Source: Flavipsychrobacter sp.
Lineage (GTDB): Bacteria > Bacteroidota > Bacteroidia > Chitinophagales > Chitinophagaceae
NCBI GenBank assembly: GCA_024508935.1
Contig: JANINW010000006.1
Coordinates: 91,873 to 155,872, forward strand
DNA: 64,000 nucleotides
Direction: 5' to 3'
The number at the start of each line of letters is the position of its first letter. Position 1 is the stretch's first letter. A program made the translations under genes and the position numbers. Below, piece after piece: positions 2,758 to 31,027 of this stretch. The notes below the pieces were generated by a model that was given only the letters and a program-made list of their open reading frames with translations, was not told the origin of the DNA and made no database searches.

Positions 2758-3147
2758 TTAAGCCCTGTAAGATTTGGGAGGGGGTGGATTGATCTCCCGG
2801 TAAAAAAGGAATTTATACTGATGCGGTAATACAGGCGTATTAATAGCCACATCGTATACAGGAAGCACCGCGGGTATGATTAATTGCGGTACGATTACTT
2901 TAAAATTAATGTGCTTTACAGACTGGAACTTTTTGCTGTGTTTATGTTCCGGGAACATGACCGCCTTGTGAAACATATCGTAAGGAGAATCATAACCGGT
3001 AGCGTGGATATTGACCTGGCCCGGGTCCAGTTCTACAGAGAACCCATCATCGTCGCCATCATCCTGTGCCTGTACTCCCAATGCCATAACATTGAGTGCA
3101 AAAAGCAGACAAAAAATGCGGGCTATATGTTTGGTCAGAAAGTGCAT
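2758..3147 (-). CDS. Small exported/leader protein ending in EINPPPPK (candidate regulatory uORF of the efflux operon)
   Basis: 129 aa; signal peptide ending ALGVQA|Q, acidic DDGDDDG, His cluster, C-terminal polyproline; own TAACTTTG promoter about 20 nt upstream. Confidence 0.75.
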   Translation of the reverse strand: MHFLTKHIARIFCLLFALNVMALGVQAQDDGDDDGFSVELDPGQVNIHATGYDSPYDMFHKAVMFPEHKHSKKFQSVKHINFKVIVPQLIIPAVLPVYDVAINTPVLPHQYKFLFYREINPPPPKSYRA

Positions 3148-6058: not shown

Positions 6059-7036
6059 ATGTCAGTAATAGTATTAGCAGAACATCAACAAGGCAGCTTC
6101 AAAAAGAAGAGTTTTGAAGCGGTACAATATGCTGCAGGTATAGCTCAAAGCTTGGGCACCACTACCACGGCAATAGTGTTGGGCAACGCCAGCGACAGCG
6201 AGATGCAGCAACTGGGCCAGTATGGCGCCAACAAAGTATTGCAGGTAGCAGATGCGCGCCTGGACAACCTGAGCGCAACCGCCTATGCAAAGGCTATAAT
6301 AGCCGCTGCTGAAAAAGAAGGCGCTAAAGTAATTGTTGGCTCTCATGACGTGACCGGCAAAGCCGTAGCGCCACGTGTAGCGGCAAAAATGAAAGCAGGC
6401 ATGGTAGCCGGTGCGGTTTCGCAACCCGACCTGTCTAAAGGCTTTGTGGTAAAAAAGAATGTATTCTCGGGCAAAGCATTTGCTTTTGTAAACATCACCA
6501 GCGATGTAAAAGTAGTGACCCTGATGCCTAACACCTTCCCGGTAAAGAAAGGCGAAGGTAGTGTGAGCATAGAAAAACTGGATGTAGCTTTTGACGATAA
6601 AGATTTTGCTGTGCAGGTAAAAGAAGTAAGCAAAGTAACCGGTACCGTACCGCTGAGCGAAGCGGAACTGGTAGTATCCGGCGGCCGTGGTATGAAAGGC
6701 CCTGAGAACTGGGGTATACTGGAAGACCTGGCAGGCAGCCTGGGTGCAGCCCTGGCCTGTTCACGCCCGGTAGCCGATTCACACTGGCGCCCGCACCACG
6801 AGCACGTAGGCCAGACAGGCGGTACCATACGTCCTAACCTGTATATAGCTGTGGGCATCAGCGGTGCTATACAGCACCTGGCAGGTGTAAATGGTTCTAA
6901 AACCATCGTGGTGATAAACAAAGACCCTGAGGCGCCGTTCTTCAAAGCCGCAGATTACGGTGTGGTAGGCGATGCTGCAGAAGTAGTACCACGCCTTACC
7001 GCTGCCATCAAAAAATTCAAAGAAGGCCAGCATTAA
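6059..7036 (+). CDS. etfA: Electron transfer flavoprotein alpha subunit
   Basis: AELVVSGGRG, SRPVAD, QVGQTG-like HVGQTG, LYIAVGISGAIQHLAG, INKDPEAPFF. Confidence 0.96.
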   Translation: MSVIVLAEHQQGSFKKKSFEAVQYAAGIAQSLGTTTTAIVLGNASDSEMQQLGQYGANKVLQVADARLDNLSATAYAKAIIAAAEKEGAKVIVGSHDVTGKAVAPRVAAKMKAGMVAGAVSQPDLSKGFVVKKNVFSGKAFAFVNITSDVKVVTLMPNTFPVKKGEGSVSIEKLDVAFDDKDFAVQVKEVSKVTGTVPLSEAELVVSGGRGMKGPENWGILEDLAGSLGAALACSRPVADSHWRPHHEHVGQTGGTIRPNLYIAVGISGAIQHLAGVNGSKTIVVINKDPEAPFFKAADYGVVGDAAEVVPRLTAAIKKFKEGQH

Positions 7037-26980: not shown

Positions 26981-28072
26981 TTATTTAATGCGTTTGGGGA
27001 ATATATCGTCTATCTCCTTTTTATTATAGGCATCTGTAGCTGCGGGGCGGTATGGGTGCTGCTGCAGCCATGTTTCAAGGGAAGGAATGGCCTCGGGGTG
27101 GAATTTTTTCCAGGCTTCGAAAAACTGCTGGTTCTCAGACCGGCCAAATAACCATTCATTATATATATCGAACATACTGCTGCGCAGCAATTCGTCCTGG
27201 CGTGTAAAAAGCGTAAAGGGGTATTTGGCGGCATACTGTATACTCCAGTCCATCAGGAAACGGGTGCGCAGCATGGTAAGGTTCTCGGCAGTAACGCCAT
27301 CGCTTACCACCGGAGATAATTTAATGTAGGTAGTATATACTGCTTCTTCAAAATTTTCGGGCTGGTTGCTCTTCTTATTACCATATTTTGGCAGTTCCCC
27401 TGTTGCAAGGCTGCCAAATAGTTTACGATAAGCATCCATTATCATGGTACGCGTTTCATTGGCGCGCGGTGTCTGCTGTTCTATATTTACAAACATTTCA
27501 CCGTATAATATGGCCCATACCGGCTTATTGGTATACATATACATCCGGGCAGCCTCATAATAGTTTACATGATAGGCAGGGTCGGCAGCAATGCCATTCA
27601 GCCAGCTTTCCAGCGCGTATACCGATTCGTTTTCATCTTCGTACATCTTACCCATTTCATGGTACAAAAGCCCTGATTTAGGGTGGCGCTCTATGCCTTT
27701 TTGTAAGGTATTCCGGGCTTTTTTATTCTCCCCCGAGCCCACATAACTGGCCGCTATTACCTGGTAACATTGGTCATCTCCTGCGCCGGTCTTAACAATA
27801 GGTTCCAGTGTATTTAATGCATTCTCATAGTCGCCGGCCATATAATATGCCTGCCCCAGGTCGCGGTGCAGTATCATTATTTCGGGTGCTATCTGTATAG
27901 CCTGCTGGTAGGTAATTATAGCCTGCCTGAGATTTCCCTGCGAATAATACTGGCGGGCATCCTTATACATCTGCTCAACCTCGGGCGATGGCCAGGTAGT
28001 AGTTTGGGCATGCGCATTTGTGATAAATAAACCCGATAACGCAATAGAAAAAACAAACAGGATTTGTTTCAT
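26981..28072 (-). CDS. Exported tetratricopeptide-repeat protein
   Basis: Signal peptide from MKQIL (ATG 28072) and several TPR motifs (AI..YQQAIQIAP, LGQAYYMAGDY). Confidence 0.8.
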   Translation of the reverse strand: MKQILFVFSIALSGLFITNAHAQTTTWPSPEVEQMYKDARQYYSQGNLRQAIITYQQAIQIAPEIMILHRDLGQAYYMAGDYENALNTLEPIVKTGAGDDQCYQVIAASYVGSGENKKARNTLQKGIERHPKSGLLYHEMGKMYEDENESVYALESWLNGIAADPAYHVNYYEAARMYMYTNKPVWAILYGEMFVNIEQQTPRANETRTMIMDAYRKLFGSLATGELPKYGNKKSNQPENFEEAVYTTYIKLSPVVSDGVTAENLTMLRTRFLMDWSIQYAAKYPFTLFTRQDELLRSSMFDIYNEWLFGRSENQQFFEAWKKFHPEAIPSLETWLQQHPYRPAATDAYNKKEIDDIFPKRIK

Positions 28073-28225
28073 AACAGGTGGCAAAATACCGCAAAACTGC
28101 TGATAATTCCAGCATTCGGGCACAAACATTTATATGTTGTACGGTAAGAGGATGGGCAGTTTAACATATCCTTAATTTGAACCAATGAAACATAATTGAT
28201 GTTTTTAGCTTTATTTTGTCTGCGA

Positions 28226-28534
28226 ATGCGACATTTTCTTGCATATGTGTTCCTTATCATTTTCTCCTTCCAGGTGCTTCCTGTCAAGGAGATAGGCAAG
28301 ATTTTGTTTAAAGCACAAATGACAGAAGAGATACATGAAGCCGGTCATTCTTCTGACGACGGCCCTTCTGCCAAGCTCAAAAAAGACAGTGATTTCTTTA
28401 AACTGATGGAGCATGAGAATATTGCTATCATGCAATACATTGCTACCACGGTAAACACGGCTATTCATCTTTCTGACCGCCTTCCAAGGCAACATGTTCC
28501 GGATATCCTGACGCCTCCTCCAAACTGCATCTAA
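28226..28534 (+). CDS. Small leader-type protein ending in DILTPPPN (candidate regulatory uORF of SulP-carbonic anhydrase)
   Basis: 102 aa from ATG 28226 (ORF opens at 28196); N-terminal hydrophobic segment, His/acidic middle, terminal PPP. Confidence 0.75.
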   Translation: MRHFLAYVFLIIFSFQVLPVKEIGKILFKAQMTEEIHEAGHSSDDGPSAKLKKDSDFFKLMEHENIAIMQYIATTVNTAIHLSDRLPRQHVPDILTPPPNCI

Positions 28535-28653
28535 GCAGTTATACTGCATTCCCGGTTATTGCTCCCAAAAATGAGGAGCTATCTCTCAATGCTTTTTCAG
28601 GATTGTTATGCTAAGCGCTCCTATGTACGCTTACGCAGGCACACAAAAAATTT

Positions 28654-30315
28654 ATGGAACAAAAAACAAGTTTATTTAAATACTTCAAGAAGGATTTAAC
28701 GGCGGGGCTTATCGTCTTCCTCATTGCGCTGCCCCTTTGCCTGGGTATAGCACAGGCATCGGGTGCTCCTCTTTTCTCCGGCATAGTAGCCGGTATCGTT
28801 GGCGGTATTGTCATTGGTTTTCTCAGCGGCTCACAGCTAAGTGTGGTGGGCCCTGCAGCCGGGCTTACCGCCATAGTTTTAACAGCAATAGGCGACCTGG
28901 GGGCCTTTGATATTTTTCTCTGCGCCGTTATAGTAGCCGGTGGGGTACAAATATTGCTCGGCATGATAAAGGCCGGCTCAATAGCCAATTACTTCCCCAA
29001 CAGCGTGATAGAAGGTATGCTGGCAGGTATAGGCCTTACCATTATCATTAAGCAGGTACCCGATGCTGTAGGCTATACAAAACGCAACCACGACCTGATG
29101 GTAGATGCAGATGACGGTTTCACTATCAATACGATCACCGATTCCCTGAGACATATACAACCCGGCGCTGTTATTATAGCAGTAGTGGGCCTGGCCATAC
29201 TCGTGCTGTGGCAAACAAAGGCTTTCAAAAAAGTGCAGCTGCTGCCCAGCGGGCTCATTGTCGTAGTGTTGGGAATCGTCATCAATGAAATCTTAAAAGC
29301 CGCAAATTCACCGTTATTCCTCGACAGCACGCACCTGGTAAACCTGCCTGTAGCTTCCTCTGCCACCGAGTTTTTCGGCCAGTTCACCATGCCCAGCTTG
29401 TCCGGATTTGCTAATCCTAAAGTATGGCAAACAGGTGTGGTCATAGCTATCGTAGCATCTATCGAAACACTATTGTGTGTAGAAGCTACCGATAAACTGG
29501 ACCCGATGAAAAGATATACCCCCACTAACCGCGAGCTGAAAGCCCAGGGCATAGGCAATATAGTAAGCGGCTTTTTAGGCGGATTGCCTGTGACATCTGT
29601 GATTGTACGCTCATCTGCGAACATCAACGCCGGTGCACGCACAAAACTCTCTACGATCTTTCATGGCACGCTGCTGCTTATTTGCGTAGCATCCATACCT
29701 ATGGTGCTGAACCTGATACCTAAATCAGCTTTAGCGGCCATATTGATATTTACCGGGTACAGGCTTTGCAAACCCGCTGTGTTCAAGCATATGTGGAAGG
29801 AGGGGGGCGTTACCCAATTTATTCCTTTCGCAGCCACTGCAATAGCTGTAGTATCGCTAGACCTGCTAAAGGGTGTGGGCATCGGTATTATCATCAGCAT
29901 CTTTTACATACTGCGCCAGAATATGCGCATACCATATTACTACCAGCGCAGCAGCTTCAGCAACGGGGAGCTCATAAAAGTAACACTTGCACAAGAAGTA
30001 TCCTTCCTCAACAAAGCCAGCATTAAAGAAACACTGAATAACCTGCCGGGCAATACAGCCGTGATAATAGATGCAAGCCAGACAGAATACATTGATTTTG
30101 ATGTGCTGGATATGATACGCGATTACTATGAAACAAAAGCTCCTGAGAAGAACATCAAAATGTCTTTGATCGGGTTCCGCAATATGTATAAGGTACCGGC
30201 TGCCGCTTCGGAAGTAGAAGTAACCGCAGACTTGGTAGATGGCAACGAAGTGCCGAAACGCTCTGCCGGCGGTTATAAAAAACTACTGCGCCAACTGGCA
30301 TCGATAAAAGAATAG
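28654..30315 (+). CDS. SulP/SLC26 anion (probably bicarbonate) transporter with STAS domain
   Basis: AGLIVFLIALPLCLGIA.ASGAP, GPAAGL, IVASIETLL, GGLP.TSVIVRSSAN, QEVSFLNK. Confidence 0.94.
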   Translation: MEQKTSLFKYFKKDLTAGLIVFLIALPLCLGIAQASGAPLFSGIVAGIVGGIVIGFLSGSQLSVVGPAAGLTAIVLTAIGDLGAFDIFLCAVIVAGGVQILLGMIKAGSIANYFPNSVIEGMLAGIGLTIIIKQVPDAVGYTKRNHDLMVDADDGFTINTITDSLRHIQPGAVIIAVVGLAILVLWQTKAFKKVQLLPSGLIVVVLGIVINEILKAANSPLFLDSTHLVNLPVASSATEFFGQFTMPSLSGFANPKVWQTGVVIAIVASIETLLCVEATDKLDPMKRYTPTNRELKAQGIGNIVSGFLGGLPVTSVIVRSSANINAGARTKLSTIFHGTLLLICVASIPMVLNLIPKSALAAILIFTGYRLCKPAVFKHMWKEGGVTQFIPFAATAIAVVSLDLLKGVGIGIIISIFYILRQNMRIPYYYQRSSFSNGELIKVTLAQEVSFLNKASIKETLNNLPGNTAVIIDASQTEYIDFDVLDMIRDYYETKAPEKNIKMSLIGFRNMYKVPAAASEVEVTADLVDGNEVPKRSAGGYKKLLRQLASIKE

Positions 30316-30349: not shown

Positions 30350-31027
30350 ATGAGAACACAATATCAATCAATACCTCAAGACATTACGCCTGAAGAAGCT
30401 TTGCAGCTGCTAAAAAAAGGCAATTTCAGGTTTATCAATAACCTGAAAATAAACCGCGACCTGCTGGAGCAGGTGAATGAAACCAAAGACGGGCAATGGC
30501 CTTTTGCAGCTATACTCAGCTGCATGGATTCCCGCACTTCTGCCGAACTGATATTTGACCAGGGTCTGGGAGATATCTTCAGCATACGTATAGCGGGCAA
30601 TGTTATAAGCGAGAATGTGCTGGGCAGCCTGGAATATGCTACAGCTGTTGCCGGATCTCGCCTGATACTGGTGCTGGGACATACTAATTGTGGCGCTATT
30701 AAAGGGGCATGCGACCATGTAGAAATGGGCCACCTCACAGGACTGCTGGATAAGATACAACCTGCCATTCATGCAGAAACAACCGTTACCAAAGACCGCA
30801 CCAGTAATAATAAAACATTTGTAGACGAAGTAGCACGGCTGAATGCCATGCATACCGTAGAGCAGATATTATCACAGAGCCCAATTATAAATGACCTTGT
30901 AAAAAAGGGGAAAGTGGGTATTGTGGCCGCATTATATGATACCACAAATGGCAAAGTAAACTTCTATGATACGAAACATATTATTTCCGTACCGGTAGCA
31001 GAAGATAACCATTTACGCGTTGCATAG
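30350..31027 (+). CDS. Beta-class carbonic anhydrase
   Basis: Zn ligands in CMDSR and HTNCGA; FDQGLGDIFSIRIAGN. Confidence 0.96.
   Translation: MRTQYQSIPQDITPEEALQLLKKGNFRFINNLKINRDLLEQVNETKDGQWPFAAILSCMDSRTSAELIFDQGLGDIFSIRIAGNVISENVLGSLEYATAVAGSRLILVLGHTNCGAIKGACDHVEMGHLTGLLDKIQPAIHAETTVTKDRTSNNKTFVDEVARLNAMHTVEQILSQSPIINDLVKKGKVGIVAALYDTTNGKVNFYDTKHIISVPVAEDNHLRVA

Follow-up and report, generated by a model that had tools for sequence, protein, structure and literature searches.

The closest described relative of the system considered here is CutF, the leader peptide of the cutFOG operon of Rhodobacter capsulatus, a product of 118 amino acids that carries a Sec signal peptide and a CxxxC copper site and ends in PEPEGPPPRL. 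Copper on the exported part of CutF prolongs a ribosome stall at the PPP motif, overriding EF-P, and the stall melts a stem-loop that lies over the cutO ribosome-binding site. CutF acts only in cis, its exported product is degraded rapidly, and its tail alone, placed in a LepB fusion, gave no stall (for all of these observations, PMC9973294; bioRxiv 10.1101/2025.02.05.636593). Ozturk et al. (2023) drew up a rule set for CutF-like proteins, namely a length below 150 amino acids, a signal peptide, PP within the last 15 residues, and a neighbor on the same strand (PMC9973294). As set out in the main text of that paper, the CutF-like catalogue has a large Bacteroidota share, with OEP, CzcA/B, CusF, TonB-like, PCuAC, and HupE proteins among the neighbors (PMC9973294).

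Other nascent peptides work along related lines. Copper is the signal for two CutF-like upstream ORFs with Cys/His motifs, CruR of Bordetella pertussis and CopL of Xanthomonas (PMC9426467, cited in PMC9973294), and CruR is reported to relieve, not induce, stalling when copper is present. SecM, MifM, VemP, and the RAPP-type peptides begin with a signal sequence or transmembrane segment and arrest a few codons before the stop, and the ribosome stalled on them opens a structure over the initiation site of the next gene (PMC7897499, PMC10987492). Neither of these surveys contains a Bacteroidota example among the monitoring or arrest peptides. Polyproline can also set expression without a dedicated leader: in Escherichia coli, EF-P-dependent translation of PPP in CadC sets an expression level tied to pH physiology, and in the same species Thr is the weakest stalling context in front of PPP, with GPPP also in the weak group (PMC4176338).

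Here we consider a small ORF in the window, by which we mean the whole stretch of 64,000 nucleotides of a Flavipsychrobacter genome that was analyzed, which precedes genes for a SulP-family anion transporter and a beta-class carbonic anhydrase. To our knowledge, little is understood of how heterotrophic bacteria control their bicarbonate transporters and carbonic anhydrases, and such control as is known is transcriptional. The author of an earlier note on this DNA knew of no described leader-peptide control of such genes; SulP and carbonic anhydrase are indeed mentioned nowhere in the main text of the CutF paper (PMC9973294), but proline-terminated leaders of the CutF type were already known. 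On balance, we favor the reading in which the ORF, as the first cistron on one transcript with the SulP and carbonic anhydrase genes, acts in cis as a CutF-like nascent-chain (ribosome-pausing) control peptide. The features to which we refer below are these:

28160 to 28179, forward strand: conserved upstream DNA element TTTAACA-N5-TTAATTTG, about 60 to 65 nt before the start codon.
28200 to 28218, forward strand: T-rich tract and -7-type promoter box TTATTTTG (28211 to 28218), the box ending 7 nt before the ATG.
28226 to 28534, forward strand: putative leader/sensor ORF of 102 amino acids, stop codon included, recognized by its homologues and by selection at the peptide level; Pfam and NCBIfam scans gave no match.
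28235 to 28333, forward strand: conserved N-terminal module, a hydrophobic helix (residues 4 to 20) followed by KEIGKILFK..TEEIH, based on conservation in 150 representatives and an AlphaFold2 helix.
28502 to 28525, forward strand: codons D93-I-L-T-P-P-P-N100, candidate pause motif, with P98 and P99 invariant, P97 at 95%, and N/D100 at 97%.
28505 to 28603, forward strand: predicted long-range helix pairing AUCCUGA (28505 to 28511) with UCAGGAU (28597 to 28603), from the minimum free energy and centroid folds.
28523 to 28547, forward strand: predicted alternative stop-codon hairpins ACTGC (28524 to 28528), GCAGT (28535 to 28539), and ACTGC (28543 to 28547), from sequence and fold.
28535 to 28653, forward strand: 119-nt spacer in which box, terminator, and Rfam searches found neither a promoter box nor an intrinsic terminator.
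28654 to 30315, forward strand: SulP-family anion transporter, a putative bicarbonate transporter (PF00916, 3e-61).
30350 to 31027, forward strand: beta-class carbonic anhydrase (PF00484, 6e-40; NF011765, 245 bits, above the cut-off).

The 102-residue ORF with a hydrophobic N terminus and a PPP tail is present as the earlier note described it, running on the forward strand from the ATG at 28226 to the TAA at 28532 to 28534. Homologue alignment and the position of the promoter box favor a start at this ATG over the upstream TTG chosen by gene callers. Residues 4 to 20 (FLAYVFLIIFSFQVLPV) are hydrophobic and follow directly after M-R-H; the middle of the protein (EEIHEAGHSSDD) includes H37 and H41 and lacks a CxxxC motif; and the C terminus reads PDILTPPPNCI, with the PPP codons at 28514 to 28522 (residues 97 to 99 of 102), three residues ahead of the stop. 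The downstream transporter gene has, besides its Pfam match, sub-threshold matches to the NCBIfam models DauA, sulP, and BicA.

A word-indexed search returned 88 full-length homologues of the leader, 30 to 99% identical to it from end to end, each of about 100 amino acids and called a hypothetical protein wherever it is named, and a profile search of 1.84 billion protein representatives returned 364 clusters at E<=1e-3. The family has a common layout, in which an N-terminal hydrophobic helix (FSFQVLPVKEIGK..TEE.H) is followed by a variable acidic middle and a (D/E)I-x-(T/S)PPP(N/D) tail. The N-terminal module is strongly conserved, with the consensus F-S-F-Q-V-L-P-V-K-E-I-G-K-x-L-F-K-x-Q-x-T-E-E, and among 150 representatives Q16, P19, G24, E34, and E35 are conserved in at least 92%, P19 being invariant. 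A shared M(R)HFL start, proposed earlier as a family trait, is not borne out, since the family consensus at this point is M-K/R-x-x-L-A. The acidic middle is weakly conserved and rich in indels; H37 is conserved in 46% of the family, and some middles contain Cys. The C-terminal module spans about 20 residues, I-H-x-x-E-x-L-P-x-x-H-(I/V)-P-(D/E)-I-x-(T/S)-P-P-P-(N/D). PPP itself is found in 143 of the 150 representatives, the remaining 7 having Q/R-PP, and it lies 2 to 4 residues ahead of the stop in 91% of members; it is preceded by Thr in 71% and followed by Asn or Asp in 97%. The distance between P19 and PPP varies little (median 78, SD 2.7, in the 135 representatives of 95 to 108 amino acids that made up this sample), and two longer members exist that have expanded acidic middles.

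Each invariant residue is encoded by 2 to 6 synonymous codons, and all four Pro codons are used at each of the three prolines, which argues that selection acts on the peptide and not on the DNA or RNA. Together with the 88 full-length homologues, this variation places the ORF beyond chance, and on this comparative evidence we conclude that it is a genuine translated gene whose peptide is under selection.

The association of the leader with its downstream genes is equally regular. At about 85 of 101 loci the leader lies directly 5' of SulP, with beta-carbonic anhydrase usually next. In a species-level genome collection with 57 loci, the leader immediately precedes SulP at 50 and the carbonic anhydrase gene alone at 6, and 1 locus has neither, so that the neighborhood check suggested in the earlier note finds the leader steadily 5' of sulP and/or the carbonic anhydrase gene at 56 of 57 loci. 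Distant genera show the same link. A survey of Chitinophagaceae, with one genome for each of 121 genera, found the leader ORF in 41 genera, and 33 further loci comprise 29 with the order leader-SulP-carbonic anhydrase, 1 with leader-carbonic anhydrase, 2 in front of exporter genes, and 1 orphan. In a phylum-wide sample the family is almost confined to Chitinophagaceae, the exception being three genomes of another genus. Two contigs (L003 and L004) with the labels 'Azovibrio restrictus' MAG and 'uncultured Bacteroides' carry a locus near-identical to a Flavipsychrobacter locus and are probably mis-binned or mislabeled in public records. A divergently oriented gene for a TPR-repeat protein with a signal peptide (26981 to 28129, reverse strand, in the window) is syntenic in most SulP-linked loci and is not syntenic in loci with carbonic anhydrase only.

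In each of the six genomes with a copy in front of carbonic anhydrase alone, a second copy precedes a SulP gene that lacks an adjacent carbonic anhydrase gene. A tree of the family separates the carbonic anhydrase-linked copies from the SulP-only copies as two clades, pointing to one old split after which at least six species retained both leaders and every invariant residue; the leader travels independently with SulP and with the carbonic anhydrase gene. Two divergent members (L085, ...KPTPPPNVC; L098, ...IEAPPPNC) precede genes for an ABC exporter, an HlyD adaptor, and a TolC-like outer-membrane protein, and the stop region of L085 is complementary to, and pairs with, the bases immediately ahead of the ABC start codon, a design like that of the SulP-linked loci. 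Two further copies, ending in SPPPEC (L055) and SPPPNC (L082), are orphans with no co-directional downstream gene; the next gene in L055 is a convergent recF, and pdhA lies further downstream in both. Both orphans have long branches in the tree; they may be in decay, or they may act in trans.

The peptide could instead work in trans as a mature product, a small membrane protein serving as an accessory, scaffold, or metal-handling subunit in which PPPN(C) is a binding or metal-ligand motif, and although we consider this unlikely, it accounts for several traits of the family. The N-terminal module, with P19 invariant and Q16 and G24 nearly so, is more conserved over its 35 residues than plain membrane targeting requires; His81 and His90 are conserved across the family; and 70 of 143 members have a Cys after PPPN, which counts against pausing because that residue would not yet have been added when the ribosome pauses. 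For the window leader, AlphaFold2 predicts confident helices at residues 2 to 36 and 62 to 84 (pLDDT up to 97; overall pLDDT, 75.6), but the model has a pTM of 0.31 and consists of these two helices with residues 37 to 60 disordered. Orphan copies without a downstream partner would suit a trans-acting protein, as would the weakness of TPPP as a staller in E. coli; members in front of unrelated ABC/HlyD exporters would not, nor would the position of the leader, which is invariably first in its operon and directly behind the promoter. A shared trans-acting protein is also hard to reconcile with the split SulP and carbonic anhydrase genes, each of which has long kept its own copy of the leader. 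In CutF, the precedent, degradation of the exported product is rapid. Complementarity between stop and start regions, described below, is specific to each locus and likewise speaks against a trans-acting product.

The promoter region suggests how the proposed leader would be transcribed. At every locus, those with carbonic anhydrase only included, the sequence TTA(A/C)TTTG(C/T), preceded by a T-rich tract, ends 5 to 7 nt ahead of the start codon. The Bacteroidota -7 box TAnnTTTG is strongly enriched upstream of genes in the genome to which the window belongs, where its distance to the start is bimodal, and a sharp peak 5 to 9 nt before the ATG (83 of 2,323 crude gene calls) suggests that leaderless or near-leaderless transcripts are common in this genome. 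With a -7-type box that ends 7 nt from the ATG, the leader ORF fits this class, and its transcript would be leaderless or near-leaderless as well. A sigma-54 reading of the TTTGC box was rejected by eye, as no GG element stands 10 to 11 nt upstream. A second element, TTTAACA(N5-6)TTA, stands 60 to 65 nt upstream of the leader start at almost every locus, again including those with carbonic anhydrase only, and may be an activator or UP-type site. It can also be read as an imperfect TTAA-N7-TTAA palindrome and could be a candidate binding site for some regulator; no regulator gene is adjacent, and a loose pattern search of the genome for a TTTAACA regulon returned only the leader locus and noise.

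The earlier note had named a separate sulP promoter in 28535 to 28653 as a finding that would count against its reading. Across 57 spacers totaling 6,348 nt we found no TAnnTTTG and a single TTAnTTTG, the window spacer having neither, and a sigma-70-type scan of the window spacer found nothing. With no promoter box in the spacers and the leader behind the only recognizable promoter, co-transcription of leader, sulP, and carbonic anhydrase gene appears likely.

Spacers between leader and downstream gene range from 61 to 183 nt (56 loci). They share no single conserved sequence or RNA fold; they can be aligned only within subclades, RNAalifold energies are weak, and a search of Rfam over 27900 to 28800 gave no match at E<=1. 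The structured spacer of about 120 nt described in the earlier note is there at 119 nt, but its folding is modest, only somewhat better than that of shuffles (z = -1.9). Within the predicted 28505 to 28603 helix of the window lie the PPP codons and the stop codon along with two hairpins, and its 5' strand would be covered by a ribosome positioned at PPP.

Pairing between the end of the leader and the start of the next gene is, by contrast, a recurrent and locus-specific feature. Spacers between SulP and the carbonic anhydrase gene are 30 to 45 nt, which makes this junction unusable as a pairing control, and cross-locus chimeras were used instead. Over 48 non-redundant loci, the predicted duplex between stop region and start region has an energy of -11.1 kcal/mol in native combinations versus -8.2 across loci (permutation p = 5e-5). 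In partition-function folds, the partners of the downstream start region (-20 to +5) peak sharply at +12 to +29 nt from the first Pro codon, at about five to ten times background, a zone that takes in the stop codon with the last sense codons before it and some ten bases after it; 3.66 nt are paired in this zone in native loci, versus 0.54 in chimeras in which start regions were swapped between loci, so that the swap removes the peak. The signal is bimodal: a strong helix is predicted in 16 of 46 native loci versus 6 of 184 chimeras, and it is missing in about two thirds of loci. The window has no such helix (0.0 nt), and most of its SulP start region is predicted to be unpaired. In L005, L006, L024, L033, L045, and L056 the stop codon and the downstream AUG share one predicted helix. 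Pairing in the SulP-only clade joins the codons immediately ahead of PPP to the six bases that precede the AUG, and a compensatory change accompanies it.

Stop:start helices of this kind would fit ordinary translational coupling as well, with a plain first cistron loaded with ribosomes on a leaderless message, its translation opening the spacer without any sensing, and PPP serving as dwell time or being incidental. The leaderless-type promoter arrangement that it supposes is common in the genome. We nevertheless judge this improbable, because it does not explain why PPP(N/D) is kept with conserved flanking residues over about 20 positions, why the N-terminal module and TEE-x-H are conserved, or why the spacing from P19 to PPP is so narrow. 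Transcription attenuation, in which the position of the ribosome at the end of the ORF decides whether a terminator forms in the spacer, is very improbable, for although 9 of 48 spacers, mainly in the SulP-only clade, contain terminator-like hairpins followed by T-rich tails (versus 4.5% of shuffles), no intrinsic terminator is found in the other 39 or in the window spacer, and such T tails as there are lie apart from the stems and are weak.

The same window holds a second small PPP-tailed ORF, of 129 amino acids, at 2758 to 3147 on the reverse strand, which ends in YREINPPPPK and precedes OEP/CzcB genes. The proposal that the two ORFs form one leader family fails, the hhalign profile comparison giving a probability of 0.7%; the second ORF resembles the SulP leader only in a 14-residue (D/E)I-x-PPP tail. 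That their middles are dissimilar was correctly noted, in that no homology is detected outside this tail. The second ORF has only three homologues in the databases, all with Y(R/K)(E/K)INPPPPK and all in front of OEP and CzcB-type genes, and it fits the published CutF-like context well but is not DUF2946 by HMM. This ORF, L070, and L072 share an upstream TTTAACA followed, after about 20 to 22 nt, by a -7 box (TAACTTTG, 3174 to 3167 in the window). Of the reading put forward earlier, the conserved sulP- and carbonic anhydrase-linked family, its PPP tail under selection, the spacers free of a TAnnTTTG box, and the pairing of stop and start regions in many loci are supported, and kinship of the two ORFs is not; the arrest is a candidate, and the signals named earlier (CO2, pH, or Zn) are conjecture.

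The genome to which the window belongs contains 40 frames of at least 40 amino acids with PPP no more than 6 residues from the stop, of which three resemble real exported small proteins. The third exported PPP ORF, at 6891 to 7286 of contig C6, encodes 131 amino acids with a signal peptide and an [DE]I-x-PPP end (...YKAEFEITPPPADK); it precedes a gene for a secreted protein of 170 amino acids, not a transporter, and its PPP tail may be coincidental. In another family of the phylum (genus g105; L063 to L065), ORFs of 127 to 138 amino acids that end in DRLPDQIYLDIISPPPQG and contain a membrane segment, paired Cys residues, and five His in a row (HHHHH) head a copper operon for an outer-membrane channel (PF13557), SCO1/SenC, and PCuAC. 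They have no Pfam or NCBIfam match, and their C-terminal part matches the SulP-leader profile.

For the SulP leader we infer a stall, a signal, and action in cis, which would operate as follows. The N-terminal hydrophobic helix would bring the nascent chain to the membrane while the C terminus is still being synthesized, and the ribosome would dwell at (T/S)PPP(N/D), a pause normally resolved by EF-P, which is encoded in the same genome. The length of the pause would be set by the fate of the TEE-x-H/acidic segment outside the ribosome; candidate signals, all of them guesses, are a divalent cation such as Zn, pH, and membrane potential. Held at PPP(N), or terminating, the ribosome would cover the strand that pairs with the downstream start, keeping the spacer RNA open for translation of SulP or carbonic anhydrase. 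The output step may differ in the window, where the SulP start is unmasked, and could there be mRNA stability, Rho polarity, or localization of the mRNA to the membrane.

The cis-leader reading draws on the retention of leaders by split genes, on the unrelated exporters that divergent members head, on the copper genes preceded by a related tail module in another family, on the first position in the operon, on conservation in a module-linker-module pattern, on locus-specific pairing, and on the CutF precedent. Counting against pausing are the weakness of TPPP, the missing helix in about two thirds of loci including the window, the strongly conserved N terminus, the orphans, and the lack of DUF2946. 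A large family, a sharp invariant motif, and natural 'experiments' in the form of duplicated leaders, ABC-exporter members, and orphans make it possible to test the pausing hypothesis directly. For annotators, the family supplies a name for 'hypothetical proteins' of about a hundred residues whose start codons gene callers have miscalled.

A broader proposal, which we offer tentatively and regard as rather doubtful, is that modular, membrane-targeted nascent peptides ending in PPP precede many transport operons of Chitinophagaceae, and probably of other Bacteroidota, and act there as translational sensors, that the SulP leader is the first case of nascent-chain control of inorganic-carbon genes, and that its TEE-x-H patch reports to the ribosome while crossing the membrane. 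Lying about 55 to 60 residues before PPP, the TEE-x-H/acidic patch would be in the course of crossing when the ribosome is at PPP, and it might then report a periplasmic cation (e.g., Zn), pH, or membrane potential and so set synthesis of the bicarbonate transporter and carbonic anhydrase.

How far does the SulP leader resemble the systems with which we began? Judged by the CutF-like rules, it is short enough at 102 amino acids and has a suitable N terminus (hydrophobic residues 4 to 20, within the predicted helix 2 to 36), its PPP lies at residues 97 to 99 of 102, and its neighbor in the window begins after 119 nt. The rules also look for a metal-binding motif of Cys and/or His in the exported part, where the window protein has H37 and H41 and no CxxxC. 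Its neighbors are not transition-metal homeostasis genes, SulP and carbonic anhydrase being outside the neighbor classes named in the main text of PMC9973294, and PF11162 (DUF2946) matches neither small ORF of the window (E<=1) nor a six-frame translation of the whole genome (E<=10).

CutF and the SulP leader are both of about 100 to 120 amino acids, encoded by the first gene of an operon, and provided with an N-terminal export or membrane segment, and both place PPP two or three residues before the stop (...EGPPPRL* in CutF, ...LTPPPNCI* in the SulP leader). In both the PPP is preceded by a weak-context residue; the weakness of TPPP would fit a conditional pause, since the GPPP of CutF is also weak and the CutF tail alone gave no stall. 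Both are followed by a short spacer with RNA structure, which in many loci of the SulP-leader family forms a predicted helix over the downstream start; as Bacteroidota do not use Shine-Dalgarno sites, it would be the start region itself that is masked, unlike the ribosome-binding site in CutF. CutF has a Sec signal peptide and a CxxxC motif, whereas the hydrophobic segment of the SulP leader looks like a putative uncleaved anchor and is accompanied by a conserved TEE-x-H and acidic patch. CutF, moreover, serves metal detoxification, whereas the targets of the SulP leader are an anion transporter and a carbonic anhydrase, and its stalling, EF-P dependence, and cis action have candidate status.

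CruR and CopL share with the SulP leader a proline-rich C terminus and post-transcriptional control of the next gene, putative for the SulP leader, but they come from Proteobacteria, and the gene that follows them encodes a TonB-dependent transporter or a copper oxidase. MifM, with 95 amino acids and an N-terminal membrane anchor, is similar in size; yet SecM, MifM, VemP, and the RAPP-type peptides precede Sec/YidC genes and monitor the export machinery, whereas the genes downstream of the SulP leader encode SulP and carbonic anhydrase, and their arrest motifs are specific tunnel-interacting sequences and not bare polyproline. The CadC motif lies inside a large regulator and tunes the level of that regulator, whereas the SulP leader is a separate ORF in front of a downstream cistron. 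A classical attenuation leader (trp/his-type or TnaC, under about 40 amino acids) was considered and set aside, the SulP leader having 102 amino acids and the window spacer no terminator. Overall, the architecture is that of the CutF-like rules, and what differs from CutF is the absence of a match to DUF2946, the absence of the Cys motif, and the class of target. If the proposed reading is correct, the CutF principle would extend from copper detoxification to carbon and anion physiology and would reach a phylum that initiates translation without Shine-Dalgarno sites.
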